A stretch of DNA of 64,000 nucleotides. Source: a bacterium. Lineage in GTDB: Bacteria > CLD3 > SB21. Below are positions 33,543 to 46,272 of this stretch, piece by piece (position 1 is the stretch's first letter; every line of letters starts with the position of its first letter). A model generated the notes under the pieces. The model made no database searches and was not told the origin of the DNA. It worked only from the letters and a program-made list of their open reading frames with translations. The stretch lies in NCBI GenBank assembly GCA_008933615.1, contig WBUR01000002.1, positions 28,372-92,371 on the forward strand. The letters are read 5' to 3'. Both the position numbers and the translations under genes were made by a program.

Positions 33543-33968
33543 ATGATGATTTACAACAAAATAGTTAAAACGGGTATAGTTGCAATAACCATAACTGCAC
33601 TAATAGCGGTATATTTTAGTTCCGGTATGAAAATTTTGTGCTCGGCAAATGCGAGCGAAAGTATGACTTGTTGCAAGTCGGCTGACACTTCAAAAAATAG
33701 TTGCGATTCTCAAGGGCCGAATACTTTATCGCTTCAATCCGCACATAAGTGTCCTTGTCCTTCAATGCAAACGGGGCCTAATCAGAGTTTTGACGAAGTA
33801 TTGCCTAATACTGGAAAAGCAGAGTCAAAATCACAATCTGTTCAATGCACTTCTATTTCCACAGAAATTTACACAAGTTCCATCTCTGAATTAGTTTTGA
33901 CCGGTTATGTACATTCTTATTTATCTGCACATGAACGCCTTTCTCTCCTTCAAACCTTCCTTATTTAA
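33543..33968 (+). CDS. Hypothetical membrane-anchored Cys-rich protein immediately upstream of the metal-efflux operon
   Basis: N-terminal TM helix (GIVAITITALIAVYF), then …MTCCKS…NSCDS…HKCPCPS… Weak RBS; could be spurious. Confidence 0.3.
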   Translation: MMIYNKIVKTGIVAITITALIAVYFSSGMKILCSANASESMTCCKSADTSKNSCDSQGPNTLSLQSAHKCPCPSMQTGPNQSFDEVLPNTGKAESKSQSVQCTSISTEIYTSSISELVLTGYVHSYLSAHERLSLLQTFLI

Positions 33969-34099: not shown

Positions 34100-35377
34100 A
34101 TGTTTCATTCTATAAAAACCACGTTGTTTATTCTACTTGTATCACAGACCGTGTGTGCACAAACGCAAGACGGCTTAAGCCTTAATGAGCTTATTCAAGA
34201 AGCATTAGACAACAACCCGCAGTTACATTCTGCACGCCATCAAGCGGACGCCGCTAAAGCGCAAATCAAACAAGTGACCTCACTGGATGCACCGCAAGTT
34301 GGAATAGAGTTTTATCAAACACCGATTCAATCTTTTCCGATCGCGACAAAGAATAGCATGGAAACCGATTATTTTGTTCAGCAGATGTTTCCGTGGCCCG
34401 GAAAGTTATCCGGTATGGGAAAAATTGCAGAAAATAATGTCGCTATGAAAGAACAGGAATCGAAAGCGCTGGATAAGAAAATCATACGGGATCTTAAATC
34501 GGCGTATTATGAACTGTATCTAGTTCAGCGAAAGATGGAGATCAATGGAGAAAATAAACGCATCATGCAAAAGATCATTGATATTGCCCTTAAACAATAC
34601 GAAGTAGGCGCCGGAAATCAATCCGATATTTTGCGTGCGCAAACTGAATTGACAAAATTGACCAATGAAAGTTTTCTGTTGGAGAGGGAAAAAGGAATTA
34701 CGGAGGCTATGATCAATACATTGATCAGCAGACCAGCAAATCAACCTTTGGGGCGAATTGCAGAATTAGAGATTCATGATGTGAAAGTGGGCTTTGACCC
34801 ATTGGTTGCGATAGCCGAAGATAACCGTGCCGAACTAAAAGCTATGGGTTACAATATTGAGATGTTCAAGTCTGAACAAGCACTCGCGAAGCGCGAATTC
34901 TATCCCGACATCATGGTTCGCGGAATGTATAAGAACATGTCCAATACTTCAAAAGACTTTTGGTCGCTGATGATCGGTTTCAATGTTCCGATTGCGTTTT
35001 GGTCTAAAAATAGATACCAGGGTAAAGTCAATGAATTTGGTAAGCATATCAATCATGCAGAGATGGAATATCGGGATACGAAAAACATGATCGGAAATGA
35101 TATTCAGAATGCTTTGGTCATCATGGAGTCGTCGCGTAAGCAAGCGGATGAAATTAAGCGTCATCTTATTCCACAGGCAGAAGCGACATTAGAAGCAACG
35201 CTGGCGTCGTATCAATCGGGTAAAACATCATTCATCATGGCGCTGGACAGTTACCGGATGTTGTTAATGGCTAAACTGGATTATTCGATGAGCGTAATGA
35301 ATACTGCGGTCAGTGAGGCCCAGTTGGAACAGGCCGTTGGCTTGAGTATGAACGAAATTAAGGAGCGACTCAAATAA
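34100..35377 (+). CDS. TolC-family outer-membrane efflux protein (CusC/CzcC-like)
   Basis: Signal peptide. Two-repeat OEP architecture with conserved …YYELYLVQRKMEI… and …GAGNQSDILRAQTEL… segments. Confidence 0.8.
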   Translation: MFHSIKTTLFILLVSQTVCAQTQDGLSLNELIQEALDNNPQLHSARHQADAAKAQIKQVTSLDAPQVGIEFYQTPIQSFPIATKNSMETDYFVQQMFPWPGKLSGMGKIAENNVAMKEQESKALDKKIIRDLKSAYYELYLVQRKMEINGENKRIMQKIIDIALKQYEVGAGNQSDILRAQTELTKLTNESFLLEREKGITEAMINTLISRPANQPLGRIAELEIHDVKVGFDPLVAIAEDNRAELKAMGYNIEMFKSEQALAKREFYPDIMVRGMYKNMSNTSKDFWSLMIGFNVPIAFWSKNRYQGKVNEFGKHINHAEMEYRDTKNMIGNDIQNALVIMESSRKQADEIKRHLIPQAEATLEATLASYQSGKTSFIMALDSYRMLLMAKLDYSMSVMNTAVSEAQLEQAVGLSMNEIKERLK

Positions 35378-35394: not shown

Positions 35395-38300
35395 ATGATA
35401 GAAAAAATTATTGATTGGAGCAGTAAGAATAGACTAATAGTTATATTTGCGTATTTGATTCTGACAGGATATGGTATATATGCTGTTTTCAATATGCCGG
35501 TCGATGCTATACCTGATTTATCGGAAAACCAGGTTATTATTTTTACGGAGTGGATGGGCCGGTCGCCGCAAATTGTGGAGTCCCAGTTAACATTTCCGAT
35601 CGTATCGTCTTTGCAGGGATTGCCGGATGTCAAAGCGGTTAGAGCGGCATCGATGTTCGGCATGTCCTTCGTCTTTGTAATCTTTGAAGACAATACGGAT
35701 ATTTACTTTGCGCGAACGCGTGTGCTTGAGCGGCTAAGCACGGTTCAAACTACGTTGCCGCCCGGGGTGACGCCGTCATTGGGGCCGGATGGGACGGGCG
35801 TGGGCCATGTATTTTGGTACACGGTCGAAGGAGAGGGTTATGATCTGGGAACCCTGCGTGCCGTGCAGGATTGGTATATTCGATATAAACTTGCTGCCGT
35901 TGATGGGGTAGCCGAAGTTGCCGGAATCGGTGGTTTTGTAAAACAATACCAGGTGGATATAAACCCGCTTCAATTACGCGCTTATAACATTTCAATTTCA
36001 GACGTCGTCAATGCGATCCAACGAAGCAATAATGAAGTGGGCGGCAAGATCATTGAGGCGAGCGACGCAGAATATTTTGTAAGAGGGCAGGGCTATATTC
36101 AATCGGTCGACGATATCGGCAATTCGCTTATAAGAACCGCGCCAAACGGAATTCCTGTTTTGATAAAGAACGTTGCAACCGTGCAGGTTGGCGGAGATAT
36201 CCGCAGAGGCTCTCTGGAAAAAGACGGAAAAGGCCAAGTAGTCGGCGGAATTATTGTCATGCGTAACGGAGAAAACGCTAAAGAGGTCATAGATCGTGTG
36301 AAGGAGAAAATTAATGAGATCTCACCGGGTCTGCCGTTCGGAGTTCAAATCGTTCCTTCCTATGACCGCAGCACACTTATTCGGGATGCTATCGGAACGC
36401 TTGAGCGTGCGCTGGTCGAGGCGGCAATCACCGTTTCAATCATGGTGGCCATATTTCTTCTGCACTTCAGGAGCATTTTGCGAATTATTATCGAAATTCC
36501 TGTTTCTGTGTTATTGTCTTTTATCCTCATGCGGATATTTGGAATCACATCGAACATCATGAGTCTTGGCGGTATCATTTTGGCAATTGGGGTCATTGTT
36601 GATGCTTCCATAGTCATGGTGGAAAATGCATATAGGAATATTGCGCATGCGATAGAAGAAAAAGGGCATTTGAGCGCGGAAGATTACAAAACAATTTCAA
36701 TATCATCTGCCAAGCAAGTCGGGCGGGCGATATTCTTTTCCGAACTCATCATTTTAGTGTCATTCCTGCCCGTATTTTTATTAACAGGACAAGAGGGAAA
36801 ACTATTTACGCCATTGGCATTTACAAAAACGTTTGTGATGATCGCTTCTGCCGTAGTAGTTATTACCCTAATCCCGGTCCTCATGACATTGCTTATGAAG
36901 GGAAAATTCAGGCCTGAAAAACAAAATCCTGTCACGGGCTTCTTCATTTGGATATACGAGCCCGTTATTCACTGGGTATTAAAATATCGCAAGACTACCA
37001 TTGCCATCAATGCCATTGCGTTGATTATTACGATACCGATGATCGTGAAAACAGGTTCTGAATTCATGCCGCCATTGGATGAAGGATCCATTTTGTATAT
37101 GCCGGTTACGCTGCCGAATGCCTCAATTACTGAAGTAAATCGTATCTTGCAGTTGCAGGACCAAATTATTCATACTGTACCGGAAGTTCACCATGTTCTC
37201 GGTAAGGCCGGTCGTGCTGAAACGGCTACCGATAACGCCCCGCTAAGCATGATTGAAACGATTATTGTTCTCAAGCCGAAGGAAGAATGGCGAGCGGGAA
37301 TTACAAAGAAAGATATTATCGCTGAACTGGATCAGAAGTTGCAGATTCCGGGTGTCCGTAACGGGTGGACGCAGCCGATCATCAATAGAATTAACATGCT
37401 CTCAACCGGAGTTCGTACGGATATTGGTTTTAAGATATTCGGCGACAATTTGGATACACTCGAATATTACGCAATTAAAGCAGAGCAACTACTCAAGACC
37501 GTGGATGGAGCGGCGGACGTAGTAGCGGAACGCGTTCAAAACGGATATTATCTCGATATTGACCTTAAACGCGAAGCGTTAGCCCGCTATGGCGTCAATA
37601 TAGCCGATATTCAAGACATCATAGAGACGGCCATTGGCGGACAAAATTTAGGTATTGTACTGCAGGAAAGAATGAGATTTCCTATTCGGATGCGATACGA
37701 ACGCGAAATTCGCGATAATATTGAAGAATTGAAAAATCTCATAATACCTGTGAATGTTTCCGGAGGAATGAGCAATACCGGCGGCATGAGTTCAGCAGGC
37801 GTAGCTTCTCAGAGCATGGTAAGTCGAAAAATGGGTAGTTCGCCGGGTATGCAAAATACTAACACGGATAAAACTTATGAAGCATCTTTGACAAACGGGT
37901 TTTCACTCACAACTTCCTCCGGTGATACAAAAGTCTATCTGCCTCTTTCATATTTGGCCGACATAAAGACGTTGACAGGCCCACCCATGATCAATAGCGA
38001 GAACGGTATGCTGCGGTCTATTGTTTTTATGAATACGCGAGGGCGCGATATGGGCAGCGTGATGGAGGACGCTAAAAATGTGATCACTGAAAAATTGGAC
38101 CTTCCGACAGGGTATACCTACACATGGAGCGGACAATACGAACATAAGGTCAGAGCACAAAGAACTTTGACCATCATTATGCCGGTCGTATTCTTACTGA
38201 TATTTTTCATGCTTTACTATACACTGCATGATTACAAAGAAGCGGGCGTCGTCATGTTGTCCGTGCCTTTTGCGCTGATTGGTGGTATGTATATGATTTA

Positions 38301-38745
38301 TTTTTTGGATTACAATTTTTCAGTTGCAGTCTGGGTCGGATTTATTGCTCTGTATGGGATTGCCACACAAACCGGCGTCATCATGGTAGTCTATTTGCAT
38401 GAGGCTTTGGACCGGCGTATTCGTGATCATGAAAAGGGACTGCGGGGCCCTGTCACCGTGAAGGATATTTATGACGCGACAGTGGAAGGTTCGGTCTTGC
38501 GGCTTCGCCCCAAACTCATGACCGTTAGTACAGCCATGATAGGACTCATTCCGGTTATGTGGGCAACCGGGGCCGGATCGGATGTCATGAAACCATTAAC
38601 GGCGCCTATGATCGGCGGGTTGTTTACATCGGCGGTTCATGTGCTGGTCGTTACGCCAATTTTGTTTGTCATTATGAAGGAACTCGCGCTGAAAAAAGGA
38701 AAACTCGAGAAATCTAAAATGGCGGATTGGATGAGAGAAGGATGA
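35395..38745 (+). CDS. cusA: Heavy-metal efflux RND transporter, CusA/CzcA (HME) family, with a Met/Ser/Gly-rich periplasmic insertion
   Basis: The N-terminus aligns closely with E. coli CusA (…PVDAIPDLSENQVIIFTEWMGRSPQIVESQLTFPI…IFEDNTDIYFARTRVLERL…GPDGTGVGHVFWY…). 12-TM RND topology. Insert at about aa 785-845. Confidence 0.9.
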   Translation: MIEKIIDWSSKNRLIVIFAYLILTGYGIYAVFNMPVDAIPDLSENQVIIFTEWMGRSPQIVESQLTFPIVSSLQGLPDVKAVRAASMFGMSFVFVIFEDNTDIYFARTRVLERLSTVQTTLPPGVTPSLGPDGTGVGHVFWYTVEGEGYDLGTLRAVQDWYIRYKLAAVDGVAEVAGIGGFVKQYQVDINPLQLRAYNISISDVVNAIQRSNNEVGGKIIEASDAEYFVRGQGYIQSVDDIGNSLIRTAPNGIPVLIKNVATVQVGGDIRRGSLEKDGKGQVVGGIIVMRNGENAKEVIDRVKEKINEISPGLPFGVQIVPSYDRSTLIRDAIGTLERALVEAAITVSIMVAIFLLHFRSILRIIIEIPVSVLLSFILMRIFGITSNIMSLGGIILAIGVIVDASIVMVENAYRNIAHAIEEKGHLSAEDYKTISISSAKQVGRAIFFSELIILVSFLPVFLLTGQEGKLFTPLAFTKTFVMIASAVVVITLIPVLMTLLMKGKFRPEKQNPVTGFFIWIYEPVIHWVLKYRKTTIAINAIALIITIPMIVKTGSEFMPPLDEGSILYMPVTLPNASITEVNRILQLQDQIIHTVPEVHHVLGKAGRAETATDNAPLSMIETIIVLKPKEEWRAGITKKDIIAELDQKLQIPGVRNGWTQPIINRINMLSTGVRTDIGFKIFGDNLDTLEYYAIKAEQLLKTVDGAADVVAERVQNGYYLDIDLKREALARYGVNIADIQDIIETAIGGQNLGIVLQERMRFPIRMRYEREIRDNIEELKNLIIPVNVSGGMSNTGGMSSAGVASQSMVSRKMGSSPGMQNTNTDKTYEASLTNGFSLTTSSGDTKVYLPLSYLADIKTLTGPPMINSENGMLRSIVFMNTRGRDMGSVMEDAKNVITEKLDLPTGYTYTWSGQYEHKVRAQRTLTIIMPVVFLLIFFMLYYTLHDYKEAGVVMLSVPFALIGGMYMIYFLDYNFSVAVWVGFIALYGIATQTGVIMVVYLHEALDRRIRDHEKGLRGPVTVKDIYDATVEGSVLRLRPKLMTVSTAMIGLIPVMWATGAGSDVMKPLTAPMIGGLFTSAVHVLVVTPILFVIMKELALKKGKLEKSKMADWMREG

Positions 38746-38790: not shown

Positions 38791-40086
38791 ATGAAATATG
38801 TTTTGGTTTTATCAATACTGATAGTGGCGGGGATTGCCGGTTGTTCAAATAAAGAGTCGAGTGGTGATGAAAAAGAGAAAACAAAAGAAATCTATTATTG
38901 TCCGATGCATCCGGAAGTTACTTCAGAAAAGCCCGGGGTATGCCCGATTTGCAATATGGATCTGGTAAAAAAGGTTGATGAGAAAAGGGCGGTAATGGAG
39001 GACATGCCAGGAATGATTAATCTGAGTTTACAAAAACAAGTTCTGGCAAATGTCTCTACGCTCAAAATTCAAAAGGAACATTTTTTAAAGGAACTTGTGT
39101 CCTATAGTTATCTCGATTTTGCAGAGCAAAATAGAAGGCTTATTTCTGCAAGATTTAACGGACGGATTGAAAAGCTGTTTGTCGATAAGACAGGTGACTA
39201 CATAAGCCGAGGACAGCCTTTATTTGAGATTTATAGTCCGGATTTGCTGGAAGCGCAGAACGAATATCTCATTGCACTTGAAAATACAGCCTCGATCCGC
39301 AAAACATCGTTTAATGACGCTGCCAGTACTAACACTTTAATCAAATCTTCACGCAAACGGCTTGAATTATATGGGTTGACGGATGAACAAATTGCGACCC
39401 TCGATTCAAGTCGTGAGTTACAATACACTATGACATATTATTCGCCTATTAGCGGAACGGTTATTGAAAAAAAGATTCAGGAGGGAGCATATGTAAATGA
39501 AGGCACGCTTCTTTATGATATCGCCGATATGTCCACCTTATGGGGTATTGCGGAAATTTATGAAAAAGATTTGTCTTTGATTAAAGTTGGCAACAGGGTC
39601 AAGCTTCGTCTTCCGGCATATCCGGATGAGGCTTTTGAAGGCTCTGTAAATTTTATATATCCTGTGGTCAACTCGCAAACACGCACGGTAAAAGTTCGCT
39701 CTGAATTTTCTAATGTAAATCACAAACTCAGGCCGCAGATGTATGGGGAGATTGTCGTTCAACAAGACATGGGAAAACAACTGCTGATTTCTCAGGATGC
39801 GGTTCTGTTTACAGGAAAACGTCAAATTGTATGGGTGAAAACGGCAGAAGACCATTTTGAGTCCAAGGAAGTGACTTTGGGAATTAAGAATGACGGGAAA
39901 TATCAAGTGTTATCCGGATTAAAAGAAGGCGATGAAGTAGCCGTAACCGGCGGATTTCTCATTGACTCCGAAAGCCAGCTTCGCAGCGGAAAGGCTACGG
40001 GACATCAACATGAAGGCATGAAAATGGACGATGATTCAAAGGATCAAAAAAAGGAAACAAATGAAAGCCCAGAACACAAACACTAG
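38791..40086 (+). CDS. cusB: Membrane-fusion (periplasmic adaptor) protein CusB/CzcB-like with an N-terminal heavy-metal-binding domain
   Basis: Lipobox IAGC. YYCPMHPEV…GVCPICNMDL is an HMBD/YHS-like Cys motif. The HlyD-like body …RLISARFNGRIEKLFVDKTGDYISRGQPLFEIYSPDLLEAQNEYL… follows. His-rich C-terminal tail …HQHEGMKMDD…EHKH. Confidence 0.85.
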   Translation: MKYVLVLSILIVAGIAGCSNKESSGDEKEKTKEIYYCPMHPEVTSEKPGVCPICNMDLVKKVDEKRAVMEDMPGMINLSLQKQVLANVSTLKIQKEHFLKELVSYSYLDFAEQNRRLISARFNGRIEKLFVDKTGDYISRGQPLFEIYSPDLLEAQNEYLIALENTASIRKTSFNDAASTNTLIKSSRKRLELYGLTDEQIATLDSSRELQYTMTYYSPISGTVIEKKIQEGAYVNEGTLLYDIADMSTLWGIAEIYEKDLSLIKVGNRVKLRLPAYPDEAFEGSVNFIYPVVNSQTRTVKVRSEFSNVNHKLRPQMYGEIVVQQDMGKQLLISQDAVLFTGKRQIVWVKTAEDHFESKEVTLGIKNDGKYQVLSGLKEGDEVAVTGGFLIDSESQLRSGKATGHQHEGMKMDDDSKDQKKETNESPEHKH

Positions 40087-40104
40087 GCTAAGGAGATAAA
40101 GTTT

Positions 40105-40476
40105 ATGAAAAGGACCCATAAACATAAAAATTACAACAATCGCATTTTATTGATTTCAGCTATTGGACTTCTTGTCTTTGCAATTGTTTCTTTGCTAAAC
40201 CTTGAGTTGGATGTAAAAGAGAACGTCGGGATATCAACGTCCAAAGCGACATCATCCGATGTTAGGGTAACCAAAATTGCATCGAAATTTATATGCAGTT
40301 GTGGAAGTTGTGGCGGTGAACCACTTGATTTATGTTCATGTGAGCATGCAGTTAAAGTGCGACAATATATCCAAGAGTATTTGTTAAATAATAAAAGCGA
40401 GGATCAGATTGTCGCCTTAATCAGCAAATCATACGGCGGATTGAAACCTCAATTTGAAAAAAACACGATAAAATGA
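40105..40476 (+). CDS. CcmH/NrfF-like domain protein with an expanded Cys cluster, membrane-anchored
   Basis: N-terminal signal anchor. …FICSCGSCGGEPLDLCSCEHAVKVRQYIQEYLLNNKSEDQIVALISKSYGG aligns with E. coli CcmH …LRCPKCQNN…DLRQKVYELMQEGKSKKEIVDYMVARYGNFV. RBS AAGGAGA lies 9 nt upstream and 18 bp after the cusB stop. Confidence 0.55.
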   Translation: MKRTHKHKNYNNRILLISAIGLLVFAIVSLLNLELDVKENVGISTSKATSSDVRVTKIASKFICSCGSCGGEPLDLCSCEHAVKVRQYIQEYLLNNKSEDQIVALISKSYGGLKPQFEKNTIK

Positions 40477-40535
40477 AATGTGTCTGAAAGTCCGAACACT
40501 TAACTAATTAATTAACGTACTTAAAGGGAGTATAC

Positions 40536-41054
40536 ATGCAAAATGTCCATCCTATGTTAATTCACTTTCCAATCGCTTTATTTCTGACAGCGATGATCTT
40601 TGACCTCGTCTCTTTTGCCCGTAGAAATGAATCTTTTGAAAATATGGCTTCTAAACTATTTATTCTCAGCGCTATTGCATTTATAGCGTCCGCTATCACT
40701 GGACTTTTAGCAGAAAACAGTGTGTCGCACAGCGAAGAAGCGCATCACATTATGGAAGACCATAAACTCTTTCAATTGATTGCTACAGGCATTTCTGTTT
40801 TTATTGCTTTACTAATATTTTTTGTCAAAAAAAGAATGCAATTGCTAAGATTAGTATTAACTCTTCTCGGTGCAGGATTCATGACGTACGGCTCGTACCT
40901 GGGTGGCGAACTTGTCTATAGGTTTGGAATTGGAACAAATGTGCAAGTAATAAAACCTGATAGCAATAGACAGAATGAGCAACCCATACAAGAAGTCAAA
41001 AAAGACTCTACAGAAACTGAAGAGCACTCTGATACCCACGAGCACAAACACTAA
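40536..41054 (+). CDS. 4-TM membrane protein, DUF2231-like, with a His-rich C-terminal tail
   Basis: MLIHFPIALFLTAMIFDL… plus three further helices. Tail …TEEHSDTHEHKH. Confidence 0.5.
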   Translation: MQNVHPMLIHFPIALFLTAMIFDLVSFARRNESFENMASKLFILSAIAFIASAITGLLAENSVSHSEEAHHIMEDHKLFQLIATGISVFIALLIFFVKKRMQLLRLVLTLLGAGFMTYGSYLGGELVYRFGIGTNVQVIKPDSNRQNEQPIQEVKKDSTETEEHSDTHEHKH

Positions 41055-41081: not shown

Positions 41082-41666
41082 ATGAAGACATATGACATTA
41101 AGACTTATATAGTGTTGATTATCAGCGTCGCCGCGGTAACTCTGAACGGATGCATGATGATGGCAATGGGTGGCATGACTCATGACTCGCATTCTGATCG
41201 CGGAATACATCAATCTCAATCTGTAGAAATTCAAAAAGGCGATTTAAAAGCTATCTTGACCGTGCCTGCCCTCGTTATGGGGAAGGAGTCGGAAATTGTC
41301 ATGAAAGTATATGACCGCCATGGAATGGCCGTATCCGGCGCTAAAGTTACTATGCAATTTGATGCTGATCATGAGATGAAGAAGGATCACAATCACGGTT
41401 CTTTCGGTGGAGAAGAAAGGACTGCCGTAGAGACGGCGGGAAAGGGCACGTATAGCCTAAAACATAGCTTTGATCATCACGGTGCCATGCGTGTTACGGC
41501 GAAGATTTCCTATCAGGAGAATTCAGAGCCGCTTGTTCTGGCTATGACCACTGGGGTGTCACACATGCAAGAAAATCACAGCGGCCGCTCCATGACGCCC
41601 ATGATTATTGCAGGCGCCGCTCTGATGGCCGTGATGATGATTTTTATGATAGGAAGATACAATTAG
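41082..41666 (+). CDS. His/Met-rich lipoprotein with a FixH/YtkA-like beta-sandwich region and a C-terminal TM anchor
   Basis: Lipobox LNGC followed by MMMAMGGMTHDSHSD. His clusters DADHEMKKDHNHG and HSFDHHG. C-terminal helix IIAGAALMAVMMIFMIG. Fold assignment is tentative. Confidence 0.55.
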   Translation: MKTYDIKTYIVLIISVAAVTLNGCMMMAMGGMTHDSHSDRGIHQSQSVEIQKGDLKAILTVPALVMGKESEIVMKVYDRHGMAVSGAKVTMQFDADHEMKKDHNHGSFGGEERTAVETAGKGTYSLKHSFDHHGAMRVTAKISYQENSEPLVLAMTTGVSHMQENHSGRSMTPMIIAGAALMAVMMIFMIGRYN

Positions 41667-41699: not shown

Positions 41700-42287
41700 A
41701 TGAAAACAATGAAAATCTCAACAATGGTACTTCTTGGACTTCTATGGGTCATGAGTTGCAGCAATAACGATGATATGATGCAGGCACTGCGGATTAGCCC
41801 AAAAGATGGCGAAACGGGTGTTGCCTTGAATAAAAACATCGAATTGGATTTTGATACACCTATGGCGCGTTCAGTTGTTCAAAGAAATTTCCACATGATG
41901 ACAACACAAAAAATGCAGACGATTGCAGATTCCATGATGGTTTATATGGTAATGATGGGGATGATGACACACGGCGATTCAGCGACAATTTATGACGGAA
42001 TGATGCGAATGATGGACAACAATACGATGCGCGGAACCTTTGTTTGGAACTCGGATTCGACCCGGTGCACGTTTGATCCTGATTCGCTTATGATGCCCGG
42101 TACACAATACCGAATGCACATGGGCCAAGAAATGATGACGATGACCGGTATGATGCAAGGTGACGGTATGATGTCGGATGACAATCATGGAATGATGGGC
42201 AATGCCGGCGGTATGATGCATGGGGATATGATGATTAATTTTACTACCGGCAACAGTATGATGAAATCAGGCAACCTGAAAAATTAG
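41700..42287 (+). CDS. Extremely methionine-rich lipoprotein: an Ig-like (Big_5-type) domain plus an MM-dipeptide repeat tail
   Basis: Lipobox VMSC. …ISPKDGETGVALNKNIELDFDTPM… resembles a bacterial Ig-like domain. About 40 of 195 residues are Met, mostly as MM pairs (SMMVYMVMMGMMTHG, DGMMRMMDNN, GMMQGDGMMSDDNHGMMGNAGGMMHGDMM). Confidence 0.65.
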   Translation: MKTMKISTMVLLGLLWVMSCSNNDDMMQALRISPKDGETGVALNKNIELDFDTPMARSVVQRNFHMMTTQKMQTIADSMMVYMVMMGMMTHGDSATIYDGMMRMMDNNTMRGTFVWNSDSTRCTFDPDSLMMPGTQYRMHMGQEMMTMTGMMQGDGMMSDDNHGMMGNAGGMMHGDMMINFTTGNSMMKSGNLKN

Positions 42288-42297
42288 GAGTAGAACT

Positions 42298-42660
42298 ATG
42301 TTAGTTCATAATAGAATTTTTATAGCGGCTATATTCAGTCTGATCTTTGCGACCGGATGTACCAGCCCCATGTTGACCATATATAAGGAAAATCCTCTGT
42401 CCAAAGAAGTAATAATCATTGCCGGCAACACTGAAAACATGACCATCGGCAAAACCTACATTGTCTATCGAAACGAAATCCATACCACCTTGCCTTCATC
42501 CGGCGCTCATGCAGGACACGGTGGTCATGATATGGGAGGATCCACCCTTTCAAGAAAGATGGTGGGTCTTATACTTATTACAACAATTTTGGATTCTAAA
42601 ACCGCCTCTGCTCAAGTCGTAAGTGGTGACGTGCAGAATGGAGATATAGCCGAGGAATAG
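42298..42660 (+). CDS. Small His-rich lipoprotein (hypothetical)
   Basis: Lipobox FATGC. Motif SSGAHAGHGGHDMGG. Last gene of the tightly packed operon. Confidence 0.45.
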   Translation: MLVHNRIFIAAIFSLIFATGCTSPMLTIYKENPLSKEVIIIAGNTENMTIGKTYIVYRNEIHTTLPSSGAHAGHGGHDMGGSTLSRKMVGLILITTILDSKTASAQVVSGDVQNGDIAEE

Positions 42661-42767: not shown

Positions 42768-43121
42768 ATGAAAACCAGGATGTCTTTTTCTGTGTTAGTG
42801 ATGTTAATTTTGTGTCTGAATGTCAAAGCTTGGGCACAGGAATCAAAAGAAGCCGAAATTATATCGAAAATAGTTACCATTGATGTTCCTACCATTAAAT
42901 GCGGTTCATGCGTTAAAACCGTATCGAATGCTCTCAAACAATTGAAGGGAGTGGAAGAAGTCACTGTGGATAAAAAATCTAAAACGGCAGTTGTAAAATA
43001 CGATCCATCAAAACTAAAAGTAAATGACTTAGAAACGGCGATTTCAAAATCAGGTTATGACGCCAACGAGGTAAAAAGAGACAAAAAAGCGTTTGACGAA
43101 TTGGACTCATGTTGCCGCTAA
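42768..43121 (+). CDS. Secreted heavy-metal-associated (HMA) domain protein with a non-canonical CxxC motif
   Basis: Signal peptide (…NVKAWAQ). Ferredoxin-like HMA pattern …IVTIDVPTIKCGSCVKTVSNALKQLKGVEEVTVDKKSKTAVVKYD…LETAISKSGYDA…. C-terminus ends …DSCCR. Confidence 0.65.
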   Translation: MKTRMSFSVLVMLILCLNVKAWAQESKEAEIISKIVTIDVPTIKCGSCVKTVSNALKQLKGVEEVTVDKKSKTAVVKYDPSKLKVNDLETAISKSGYDANEVKRDKKAFDELDSCCR

Positions 43122-44559: not shown

Positions 44560-46272
44560 TCATTCAAGCAGATGCGGGGCATTCCAGAAAAACTGGGTTA
44601 GGCCTTTGTTTGTGCCAAACCATACATAATCGCCGTCAATCAATATTTTTTTTACGCGCGCCCCGGCCAATCCGTCCTGGATTCCGTAATAGATCCACTT
44701 TTGCTTACGTTTGATGTATCGTAGGACGCCGTTGTTTGTCCCGATCCATAAATTATTTTCATCGGATGCCGCGTCATTGACGCCGGGCAATAAATACTGG
44801 GTATTGACTGGAATAGACTCCCAAAACATCCTTACCTTATTGTATCTGATAACGCTTAAGTCGGATGCAAAATAGATGTATGTTGAATCCTCCGTTAAAC
44901 CCCTGATCTGTTGATCAAGAAATTGCGAAGGACTGACAGTAAATCCCACCGCATTAAAATGAGAAAATGTATAGTCGGACAACGATACCGCATAGATGCC
45001 GTTGCTTGTGCCAAGCCAGATCGTCTTATTGAAGATTAATATTTTAAAGATAGAGACGTTAAATAATGCAGGAATTTCAATTTTAGAGATTACATATTCT
45101 TTCTGCTTGGGCCTAACTATGTTTAGCCCCTGCTGTGTTCCTACATACAAGTTGTTGCCTTCCGTTGCTATGGAATATACCGATGGATGATACAAACCGC
45201 TATACGTGCCATACGTTGTCCAATAGTCCATTTTGTTGATCCGTTGAACCAAACCTTCATCCGTTCCTATCCAAATATTGTTCTTATCGCTTATCATGCA
45301 GTTCACATTTTGCAGTCGCAAGCCTGACCTGAACCCGGAATCGTAATATTTAAAATCATCCTTTTCCTGATTCCATTCTGTGACTCCGGAAACAAAGGAG
45401 GAATAGGTTCGTCCATTTGATGAACGAATATTCCCGCCGGTCCACATAGTAATGTCGTCAAAGCACATAGCGGACACGTCCTCCATTGCAAGCCCGTAGT
45501 TTAAGGGTTCCGCTAAATAGGAAACGCTGTTTGCCTTCCAGACGCCGGCGCCATAAGTCGTGAGCCATAAATTACCAAGATGATCGTATACAGAAGAAGT
45601 GACAGGAAATTTACGAAATTCATTATCCGTAAAAACCTGTTCGTAATCGTCAAATTGAAAACCGGTTTCGGTGTTCGTAAAAATATGAGGCAATTTTCCT
45701 TGCGGCACCGCTCGCAAACCGTACCAGGCAACTACGGTTGTTTCGAGTAACGATTCTCGCGCAAACCCAAATAGTGAATTACTGGAAGATAAATAGCCTT
45801 TATTAGTTTGAAGCCAAACTTTGCTGCCTTCAAAGCCGATGGAGTGAATTTCTTCATCCAAAAGAATGCCGATTTGAAAATATGTTGCAGTTGTGAATTG
45901 TTGAGACACGGGGTTGTAGATTTGCAGACCCTCTCTTGACGCAACCCAAAGAAAGTCGTTTTGCTTTTCAACGGCGACAACTTTGATGTAATTATCCAAT
46001 AAGCCGTTGCTCGTGGTCAATGGATAATTGAACTGTTTTTTTGTAAAATCATAGCGTAAGACGCCGCCTAAGGTTCCGACATACGCAATTTTATAACTGA
46101 CTGCAATTGAAGTGCTGTAACGGGTCGCAGAAAAAGTAATCCAGTCGCCCGGCCTGTAGTTGAGTTGATAGTATATTTTTTCTACATCTTTTTTGGTTTG
46201 GGAATAAAGAAAGGCCGTAGAATTGGCAACTAGGAGCCCAAAAACGACACAATACTTAAGCATAGTTTTCAT
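44560..46272 (-). CDS. Secreted beta-propeller sensor-domain protein (two-component-regulator propeller / Y_Y_Y-like repeats), no kinase domain
   Basis: Signal peptide. Repeated …W.GT..GL..Y… blades (e.g. LWVASREGLQIYN, IWIGTDEGLVQRI, IWLGTSNGIYAVS, LWIGTNNGVLRYI, VWFGTNKGLTQF). Confidence 0.6.
   Translation of the reverse strand: MKTMLKYCVVFGLLVANSTAFLYSQTKKDVEKIYYQLNYRPGDWITFSATRYSTSIAVSYKIAYVGTLGGVLRYDFTKKQFNYPLTTSNGLLDNYIKVVAVEKQNDFLWVASREGLQIYNPVSQQFTTATYFQIGILLDEEIHSIGFEGSKVWLQTNKGYLSSSNSLFGFARESLLETTVVAWYGLRAVPQGKLPHIFTNTETGFQFDDYEQVFTDNEFRKFPVTSSVYDHLGNLWLTTYGAGVWKANSVSYLAEPLNYGLAMEDVSAMCFDDITMWTGGNIRSSNGRTYSSFVSGVTEWNQEKDDFKYYDSGFRSGLRLQNVNCMISDKNNIWIGTDEGLVQRINKMDYWTTYGTYSGLYHPSVYSIATEGNNLYVGTQQGLNIVRPKQKEYVISKIEIPALFNVSIFKILIFNKTIWLGTSNGIYAVSLSDYTFSHFNAVGFTVSPSQFLDQQIRGLTEDSTYIYFASDLSVIRYNKVRMFWESIPVNTQYLLPGVNDAASDENNLWIGTNNGVLRYIKRKQKWIYYGIQDGLAGARVKKILIDGDYVWFGTNKGLTQFFWNAPHLLE

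Follow-up and report, generated by a model that had tools for sequence, protein, structure and literature searches.

A membrane-anchored CcmH-superfamily protein with a five-cysteine cluster encoded within a Cus-type efflux operon

The stretch of DNA analysed here (the window) comprises 64,000 nucleotides of contig WBUR01000002.1 and contains a Cus-type metal efflux operon in which a small open reading frame (ORF) at positions 40105–40476, referred to below as the target, encodes a protein of 123 residues. Fold and sequence both place this protein in the CcmH superfamily, yet, unlike a functional CcmH, it has no C-terminal transmembrane segment, no linkage to cytochrome c maturation (ccm) genes and an altered cysteine motif. 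The ORF is co-oriented and tightly spaced with genes of the CusA, CusB and OEP families. Its product is identical to the NCBI entry ‘hypothetical protein F9K33_01090’, for which the precomputed Pfam assignment is PF03918 (CcmH). The features of the gene and of its product are as follows.

40090..40095, + strand: ribosome-binding site AAGGAG, 9 nucleotides before the ATG of the target, read from the sequence.
40105..40476, + strand: target ORF, 123 residues with an ATG start; bitopic membrane protein of the five-cysteine (Cys5) branch of the CcmH superfamily.
40105..40143, + strand: residues 1–13, MKRTHKHKNYNNR, basic tail at the N-terminus, for which the positive-inside rule predicts a cytoplasmic location.
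40144..40203, + strand: residues 14–33, ILLISAIGLLVFAIVSLLNL, single transmembrane anchor (AlphaFold2 helix at residues 13–35).
40243..40470, + strand: residues 47–122, periplasmic CcmH-fold domain.
40294..40341, + strand: residues 64–79, CSCGSCGGEPLDLCSC, five-cysteine cluster C-x-C-G-x-C-x7-C-x-C (C64, C66, C69, C77 and C79).

The ORF starts 18 nucleotides past the cusB stop codon (40084–40086), and the presence of AAGGAG within that gap implies co-transcription with cusB; a gap of 59 nucleotides separates its end from the DUF2231 gene downstream. Promoter-like sites were fewer than in shuffled sequences and the number of terminator-like sites was unremarkable. The basic tail of the protein is followed by the hydrophobic helix, a linker of about 14 residues and then ...IASKFICSCGSCGGEPLDLCSCEHAVKVRQYIQEYLLNNKSEDQIVALISKSYGGLKPQFEKNTIK. 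At 20 residues, the hydrophobic stretch exceeds the length of a typical cleaved signal peptide. The domain that follows is predicted to be periplasmic from the basic N-terminus and from the cytoplasmic zinc ribbons of relatives; the target itself is the minimal form of its family, with a single domain and no zinc ribbon. An Fe–S cluster was considered for the five cysteines and judged unlikely, given the Sec-type anchor, the lack of a twin-arginine motif and the periplasmic domain.

A preliminary description of this DNA had likened the C-terminal half of the target to CcmH, and the likeness goes beyond chance. Pfam PF03918 matched residues 47–122 with an E value of 4.6e-6 and a score of 26.4 bits, marginally above the gathering score of 25, the match spanning only positions 21–97 of the 143 in the model. 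The same model matched 32 of 34 relatives (best E 5.4e-11), and when a profile of 33 relatives was searched against all PDB sequences the only chains retrieved were the two solved for CcmH, 2hl7 (E 3.6e-5) and 2kw0 (E 2.7e-4). The target sequence alone gave no true match in the PDB with phmmer, the spurious hit being aIF1 at E 0.43, and it scored 14 bits with the NCBIfam NrfF model TIGR03147, for which the cut-off is 159.2, placing it outside that family.

CcmH is a three-helix-bundle thiol oxidoreductase of non-thioredoxin type, whose LRCPKC motif lies in the loop that joins helices 1 and 2 (PMC3884852). This fold was borne out for the target by an AlphaFold2 model built from a 34-sequence alignment, in which residues 51–120 have a predicted local distance difference test (pLDDT) score of 94–97. 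Helices were predicted at residues 48–59, 80–94, 99–109 and 115–121, and the cysteines lie in the helix 1–helix 2 loop, which is compact (pLDDT 95–96) and contains a small β-bridge. The protein ends 12 residues past the conserved YGG; the C-terminal transmembrane helix of functional CcmH is absent and the anchor is N-terminal instead. The target almost certainly combines the CcmH-superfamily fold with periplasmic anchoring.

The cysteine cluster was initially taken to hold seven cysteines and to replace the LRCxxC motif of CcmH. Only five cysteines (positions 64, 66, 69, 77 and 79) were counted in FICSCGSCGGEPLDLCSC, and whilst the cluster is indeed expanded, the spacing C66-G-S-C69 is kept and was aligned with CPKC, albeit in an ambiguous register. 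In the profile alignment to CcmH, C64 falls on the Leu of LRC and C77 and C79 fall on the Ser and Ala of ‘ADSNA’, such that the L-R of LRCxxC becomes C64-S65 and three further invariant cysteines are present. An alternative register, obtained via the five-cysteine CcmH proteins of ccm operons described below, places C64 on the first CcmH cysteine. The alignments thus leave it ambiguous which two of C64, C66 and C69 may be equivalent to the classical CxxC.

The genes surrounding the target in the efflux operon are listed below.

34100..35377, + strand: outer-membrane factor of the OEP/TolC family (Pfam OEP, E 1e-43; NCBIfam TolC family).
35395..38745, + strand: CusA/CzcA-family heavy-metal resistance–nodulation–division pump (TIGR00914, 1091 bits against a cut-off of 701; Pfam ACR_tran in two stretches).
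38791..40086, + strand: CusB-like membrane-fusion lipoprotein (HlyD_D23, E 1.7e-72; the heavy-metal-binding domain HMBD, E 1.2e-13; best NCBIfam match CusB).
40536..41054, + strand: His-rich DUF2231 membrane protein ending in ...HEHKH, encoded directly downstream of the target (Pfam DUF2231, E 9.4e-21).
41082..41666, + strand: lipoprotein rich in Met (10 %) and His (6 %), with a hydrophobic segment at the C-terminus (weak YtkA match, E 4.9e-4, below the gathering score).
41700..42287, + strand: lipoprotein with 21 % Met and a Big_5 Ig-like domain (Pfam Big_5, E 4.4e-8), a candidate Cu(I) binder.
42298..42660, + strand: 120-residue lipoprotein with the His/Gly motif HAGHGGHDMGG, read from the sequence.
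42768..43121, + strand: exported HMA protein, MerP/CopZ-like (Pfam HMA, E 1e-17; NCBIfam MerP/CopZ-like), with a signal peptide.

The preliminary description had also placed the target beside cusB and metal-binding lipoproteins and away from any ccm gene, and both statements held. The neighbours comprise a CusB-like HMBD adaptor, a CusA/CzcA pump, an OEP protein, an exported HMA protein and Met/His-rich lipoproteins, whilst, generic TPR matches aside, no ccm gene was detected among the 39 ORFs of the 64-kb window that were scanned with Pfam. No CxxCH protein is encoded in the operon, and a role of the target as a dedicated heme lyase for a local cytochrome was therefore rejected. Since there was no CusF-family match among the operon ORFs either, the role of CusF appears to be vacant in this operon. 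Cysteine-based periplasmic metal sites occur twice in the operon: in the CusB-like lipoprotein, which carries an N-terminal HMBD with C37, C51 and C54 and may serve the target as a client or partner, and in the HMA protein, which has a CGSC motif (C45, C48) and a C-terminal CC.

Several further features of this region were recorded. The CusA-like pump contains, at about residues 790–860, a low-complexity insertion of some 60 residues rich in Ser, Gly, Met and Ala (...GGMSNTGGMSSAGVASQSMVSRKMGSSPGMQ...) which splits the ACR_tran match, and a comparable insertion is present in a distant homologue (L001:179-3541). Just upstream of the operon, window positions 33543–33968 encode a 141-residue membrane-anchored Cys-rich protein (..MTCCKS..NSCDS..HKCPCPS..) with no Pfam or NCBIfam match; unannotated ORFs of 136–158 residues occupy the same position before the efflux genes in L002, L127, L129, L134, L136, L140 and L147, the likeness being one of size and position. 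C-terminal H-x-H tails (...EHKH, ...HEHKH, ...HSHKH and ...KHSH) are found on unrelated proteins of copper clusters, namely CusB, DUF2231 and small HMBD proteins. Examples include window 38791–40086 and 40536–41054, L001:4189-4701 and proteins in L007, L078, L079 and others; HKH is the terminal tripeptide of 9 out of 1348 neighbourhood ORFs. Adjoining the operon, a Reg_prop/PorZ-like β-propeller protein is encoded on the minus strand (44560–46272), which fits a host of the FCB (Fibrobacteres–Chlorobi–Bacteroidetes) group with a type IX secretion system.

Relatives of the target were collected with hidden Markov models (HMMs). A word-indexed homologue search gave merely three and then seven relatives, and an exhaustive HMM search of 1.84 billion representatives was used instead, yielding 416 clusters at E ≤1e-3 and 190 at E ≤1e-10, mostly from the FCB group. 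The profile included the zinc-ribbon region of one relative (P0003), and a few matches (e.g. P0042, 1903 residues) were to the zinc ribbon only. The hallmark of the family is [IV]-A-x-K-F-x-C-x-C-G-x-C-x(3-5)-L-x2-C-x-C-x2-A...R-x-F-I-R...Y-G. Across 354 unique domains each of the five cysteines is conserved at approximately 100 %, and F62 (98 %), G67 (97 %), L74 (99 %), A82 (99 %) and G111 (99 %) are also conserved. In place of the C-terminal helix of CcmH the family has an N-terminal anchor. Among 151 representative relatives, 98 have one or two zinc ribbons ahead of the transmembrane helix. A second, diverged Cys5 domain, F-x-CPCGQC...L-x-DC-x-C-x-HP-x-GA-x-EVK, is present in 65 of the 151. 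Members are currently named ‘hypothetical’ (NCBI) or ‘CcmH/NrfF’ (JGI), and no account of CcmH-like proteins in copper loci was found in the literature searched. The family is a distinct, uncharacterised branch of the CcmH superfamily that has already been absorbed by Pfam into PF03918.

The genomic context of the family was surveyed with a hand-made degenerate DNA pattern of the motif, which was scanned over one genome per species and gave at least 120 matching stretches. Of the 120 matches listed, 113 were true family members by HMM and seven were chance matches; all counts of family loci and of their neighbouring genes given here and below, and the hosts, are those among the matches listed, and the neighbourhoods are uncentred 8-kb blocks. 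The pattern requires the cysteines, so that their conservation in these loci is partly ascertained, but the representatives found by HMM give the same picture. The hosts were mostly Ignavibacteriota/Melioribacteraceae, Calditrichota, Fidelibacterota/Neomarinimicrobiota and metagenome-assembled genomes of Bacteroidota, with a few Verrucomicrobiota and others, and they included the cultured Melioribacter sp. Ez-97 and Rosettibacter primus 4148-Me.

The tie to metal efflux was found to be real. At least one metal-homeostasis gene (CusA, CusB, P1B-ATPase, HMBD or HMA) was present in 97 of the 113 loci (86 %), and P0003, a 38 %-identical homologue found independently of the pattern, is encoded between CusA-like and HMBD genes. 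Amongst the 62 loci with a short single-domain form, 28 had a CusA neighbour and 22 a P1B-ATPase with HMBD/YHS. The 51 loci with a long two-domain form had an FtrD-like/DUF2318 protein (43 loci), an FtsX/MacB-type permease (37) and an ATP-binding cassette (ABC) ATPase (28), these three genes usually following directly after the family member. Considering all forms, the gene directly upstream encoded a small HMBD protein in 29 of 115 cases and a P1B-ATPase in 17, and an FtrD-like/DUF2318 gene was directly downstream in 41 of 115. Relatives of the other proteins of the window operon recurred in the survey, with DUF2231 in 21 of the 113 loci and the YtkA-like and Big_5 lipoproteins in 18 each; the His/Gly lipoprotein was often encoded directly upstream of long family members in other genomes. 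Any CxxCH neighbour was found in only seven of the 113 loci, and regulator genes did not recur in the neighbourhoods.

The two-domain Cys5 CcmH-like protein, the FtrD-like/DUF2318 protein, the FtsX/MacB-type permease and the ABC ATPase make up a four-gene module, seen at L044:1485-4980 (Melioribacter sp. Ez-97) and at about 40 other loci. In both of its first two proteins an N-terminal zinc ribbon is followed by a transmembrane helix and then by a Cys-rich periplasmic domain, and the module resembles the DUF2318, MacB-type ABC and thioredoxin genes that accompany P19/FTR1 in Campylobacter. The most frequent unannotated neighbour was a P-II-like small protein of about 110–126 residues (MKEIKAYIRRE...GMTVIDV...; e.g. 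L025:7020-7400 and L044:53-385), which was present in 42 of the 113 loci, usually just after CusA, and DUF302 proteins were present in 10 loci. DUF2318 has been described as a member of the CsoR copper regulon of Firmicutes and is in places fused to HMA and DsbD_2 (PMC4938975).

A link back to cytochrome c maturation was also apparent, as a CcmF/NrfE-family gene was adjacent to the family member in 13 of the 113 loci. At five of the loci examined (L036, L041, L092, L105 and L016) this was a divergent CcmF-like paralogue of about 745 residues, encoded directly upstream of a two-domain member within a metal cluster and not in a ccm operon; its score of 285 bits is below the family cut-off of 569, and the copy in L092 has an intact WWD motif, WGGYWGWDPVEN. 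Coordinates of this paralogue are L036:4145-6376 and L092:2550-4775, and its clusters also hold genes for DUF302, YtkA-like, two-domain Cys5, FtrD-like and MacB-type ABC proteins, with Rieske-like and YHS-like genes in L036. At two further loci, L013 and L068, an authentic ccmE-ccmF-ccmH-ccmI cluster follows immediately after the family member.

True ccm clusters beside family members already contain their own CcmH, so named by NCBI, in which the domain lies between a signal peptide and the C-terminal transmembrane segment ‘SAPTKKGFNL.AW..PF’. These proteins carry five cysteines in LMCTCGCTMPLYTCEC and lack the classical CxxC spacing (L013:2997-3512, L068:484-966, L087:6916-7389 and L020:5121-5738, from Calditrichota and relatives); 40 relatives were recovered (P0156–P0195), nearly all with five cysteines. 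In an hhalign comparison the target family and the ccm-operon Cys5 CcmH were aligned with a probability of 98.4 % (E 4.4e-15) and with all five cysteines in register, the target family having two extra one-residue insertions. One ccm-type protein, P0186, shows the exact C-x-C-G-x-C...C-x-C spacing. The first cysteine of the ccm-operon proteins was aligned to the first cysteine of E. coli and P. aeruginosa CcmH.

Because the five-cysteine motif occurs in the CcmH of ccm operons, the cysteine expansion is not copper-specific, and an earlier view of it as an invention for copper handling had to be abandoned. Judged from these alignments, the expansion appears to be a lineage feature of CcmH in these phyla, and the target family appears to be a paralogue of Cys5 CcmH in which the C-terminal anchor was swapped for an N-terminal one and which moved to metal clusters. 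Use of System I by Ignavibacteriota is known from the detection of the CcmF protein MROS_0623 in M. roseus (PMC5492636), and the five-cysteine CcmH would imply that the redox site of CcmH is non-canonical in the System I of these phyla.

The target is probably tied functionally to copper/silver export rather than to cytochrome maturation. Cu(I) binding, or reduction of Cu(II) or of disulfides, as suggested in the preliminary description, is a putative activity. The best overall explanation, put forward tentatively, is that a CcmH paralogue has been reused as a periplasmic thiol/thiolate module in Cu(I)/Ag(I) export. That the target acts specifically as a reductase of exported copper sites is possible but doubtful. 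Such a reductase would keep the chemistry of CcmH, namely thiol–disulfide exchange with a periplasmic client of CxxC type, but the client would have changed from the CxxCH of apocytochrome c to the cysteine-based copper sites exported by the target's own cluster. Candidate clients are the HMBD of CusB, the small HMBD proteins and the periplasmic HMA protein, and these would be kept reduced, and so competent for Cu(I)/Ag(I) binding, despite copper-driven oxidation of thiols. A reductase is suggested by descent from a redox protein, by retention of the CxxC spacing, by the CcmF-like and FtrD-like neighbours elsewhere, by the presence of potential clients in the operon and by the lack of a local cytochrome.

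Several observations weigh against a reductase. A simple reductase needs two cysteines, whereas five are invariant here, leaving three unexplained, and a small subclade with C-x-C-x4-C retains five cysteines but has lost the CxxC spacing. No thioredoxin, CcdA or DsbD gene recurs among the neighbour clusters of the family. No family member lies within 10 kb at any of 29 metagenomic loci that encode CusB relatives (28–59 % identity; many of these relatives carry an HMBD), so HMBD sites do not generally need a target-type protein. The closest relatives (L002 and L003, two assemblies; 85 % protein identity and a syntenic operon) have a one-nucleotide insertion just after the cysteine cluster, at approximately window position 40362, which cuts the product to 96 residues; the rest of the operon is intact. 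In the alignment of L002:7467-7900 and L003:2368-2800 to window 40090–40540, the downstream codons are kept in another frame, and the gene is there either a pseudogene or a truncated variant. The 29 loci also rule out the target as a core part of HMBD-CusB operons: it is an accessory gene, and the link from the family to copper loci is strong but does not hold in the converse direction.

A somewhat unlikely alternative is that the five cysteines themselves form a Cu(I)/Ag(I)-thiolate site, possibly polynuclear or shared across a dimer, which would make the target a tethered periplasmic metallochaperone or buffer. By a route of comparably limited likelihood, it would pass Cu(I) from the P1B-ATPase or the periplasm to CusB/CusA, in the manner of CusF or CopG. 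The invariant cysteines are arranged as CxC, CxxC and CxC, a pattern typical of the Cu(I)-thiolate clusters of metallothioneins, Ace1/Mac1 and CopG, and the geometry of the CxC-x4-C subclade suits metal ligands better than a redox motif. Direct binding is also favoured by the confidently modelled, β-bridged loop, by the position of the gene directly after one for a P1B-ATPase (17 of 115 cases) or an HMBD protein (29 of 115) and by the lack of a CusF-family match in the operon. Against it, homologous cysteines occur in true ccm-operon CcmH, where copper binding is unexpected; the operon already encodes several candidate Cu(I) binders; the gene is missing from the 29 related Cus operons; and the periplasmic carriers of Cu(I) known so far bind the metal through Met, His or Trp. 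CopG, whose CxCC motif holds a Cu4 cluster and which has genetic links to copA and cusCBA (PMC7558416), offers an analogue.

It is quite improbable that the target still acts in cytochrome c maturation as an extra subunit of CcmH/NrfF type for CcmF/NrfE-like heme lyases; just as improbably, its position in the operon would then be incidental or would serve the maturation of a cytochrome needed under metal stress. The homology to CcmH, the adjacent CcmF/NrfE genes, the two members placed directly before ccm clusters and the presence of System I in Ignavibacteriota are consistent with this, but 86 % of the loci are metal clusters, and the ccm clusters beside members have their own CcmH. Furthermore, neither the C-terminal transmembrane segment nor the ‘SAPTKKGFNL.AW’ region, both kept by the ccm-operon CcmH, is present in the family, the NrfF score of the target is far below the cut-off, the ORFs scanned in the window include no ccm gene and the operon offers no CxxCH substrate.

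Very improbable is a structural zinc knuckle formed by four of the cysteines, with the protein serving as a scaffold or sensor that couples the state of the periplasm to the cytoplasmic zinc ribbons of relatives. The combination of zinc ribbons and a transmembrane helix in 98 of the 151 relatives, the similar layout of the neighbouring FtrD-like protein and the compact cysteine loop with its β-bridge would fit such a device, but the target has no zinc ribbon and only 13 cytoplasmic residues, and hence nothing to signal with, and its family lacks recurrent regulator genes nearby. It is hardly credible that the accessory gene is dispensable or decaying and at present contributes little to the operon: the truncation in the closest relatives with an otherwise intact operon, and the related Cus operons without the gene, are outweighed by an intact window copy with a good ribosome-binding site, strong purifying conservation over 354 unique domains and retention of the position by HMBD and CusA genes in distant lineages.

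The proposal that a CcmH paralogue serves as a periplasmic thiol/thiolate module in copper and silver export can be set against known systems. Like CcmH (2HL7 of P. aeruginosa and 2KW0, the N-domain of the E. coli protein) and NrfF, to which it has detectable homology, the target is periplasmic and membrane-tethered, and its cysteine motif, which keeps a CxxC spacing, occupies the loop from helix 1 to helix 2. It differs in having five invariant cysteines rather than two, in lacking the Arg of LRC, in its N-terminal anchor, where CcmH has a cleaved signal peptide and a C-terminal transmembrane helix, and in the location of its family in Cu/Ag efflux clusters and not in ccm or nrf operons. The Cys5 CcmH of ccm operons (e.g. 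P0156) shares the five homologous cysteines and the same phyla, but has C-x-C-G-C spacing (two residues shorter), a signal peptide, a C-terminal transmembrane segment and a position after ccmF.

CusF of the E. coli CusCFBA system is likewise small, periplasmic and the product of an accessory gene within a cus operon; it is a soluble β-barrel with Met, His and Trp ligands and no cysteines, and has no homology to the target. A superficially similar C-x-C-G-C motif is found in small exported proteins, the PCYCGC lipoproteins (PF13798), and kinship with these was rejected as the target gave no match to this Pfam family at E ≤1. The Scs proteins are periplasmic thiol–disulfide oxidoreductases tied to copper stress. 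Both they and DsbC counter copper-driven periplasmic thiol oxidation, which is the role proposed for the target, and DsbC is required under copper stress (cited in PMC7558416). They have a thioredoxin fold, however, and are re-reduced by DsbD or ScsB, and no such partner gene was seen beside the target family. CopG (DUF411) offers a further parallel as a periplasmic thiol-oxidoreductase scaffold linked to copA/cusCBA in which CxxC has been altered to a multi-cysteine motif (PMC7558416), but its fold is that of thioredoxin, its motif combines CxCC with Met, no sequence relation to the target was found, and copper binding has been shown for CopG and is only putative for the target.

On a more speculative and rather unlikely view, the Cys5 CcmH-fold module would be a novel type of copper site in the periplasm, or a redox switch that depends on copper, standing to CcmH as CopG does to thioredoxin. 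Together with the CcmF/NrfE-like, FtrD-like and MacB-type ABC genes flanking its longer relatives, it could form an unrecognised membrane system delivering reducing power or thiolate ligands to the periplasm for Cu/Ag detoxification; as a corollary, System I of the Calditrichota type would use a Cys5 CcmH and not a CxxC one.

Periplasmic copper handling as known so far relies on Met/His carriers (CusF, CusB and CopC) and on thioredoxin-fold proteins (CopG, DsbC and Scs). What is new here is a five-cysteine protein of CcmH fold as a recurrent accessory of CusCBA and P1B-ATPase clusters, in a family represented in over 100 species-level genomes from Ignavibacteriota, Calditrichota, Fidelibacterota and Bacteroidota, for which the database label ‘cytochrome c biogenesis CcmH/NrfF’ is misleading. 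Its function could be tested in two cultured hosts, Melioribacter sp. Ez-97 and Rosettibacter primus 4148-Me, and the five cysteines in genuine ccm-operon CcmH bear on the debated mechanism of thioreduction by CcmH. Should the target prove to be a thiol reductase or a Cu(I) binder, it would represent a new scaffold in copper homeostasis and would help to explain the use of cysteine-based sites (HMBD and HMA) in the periplasm of these bacteria.

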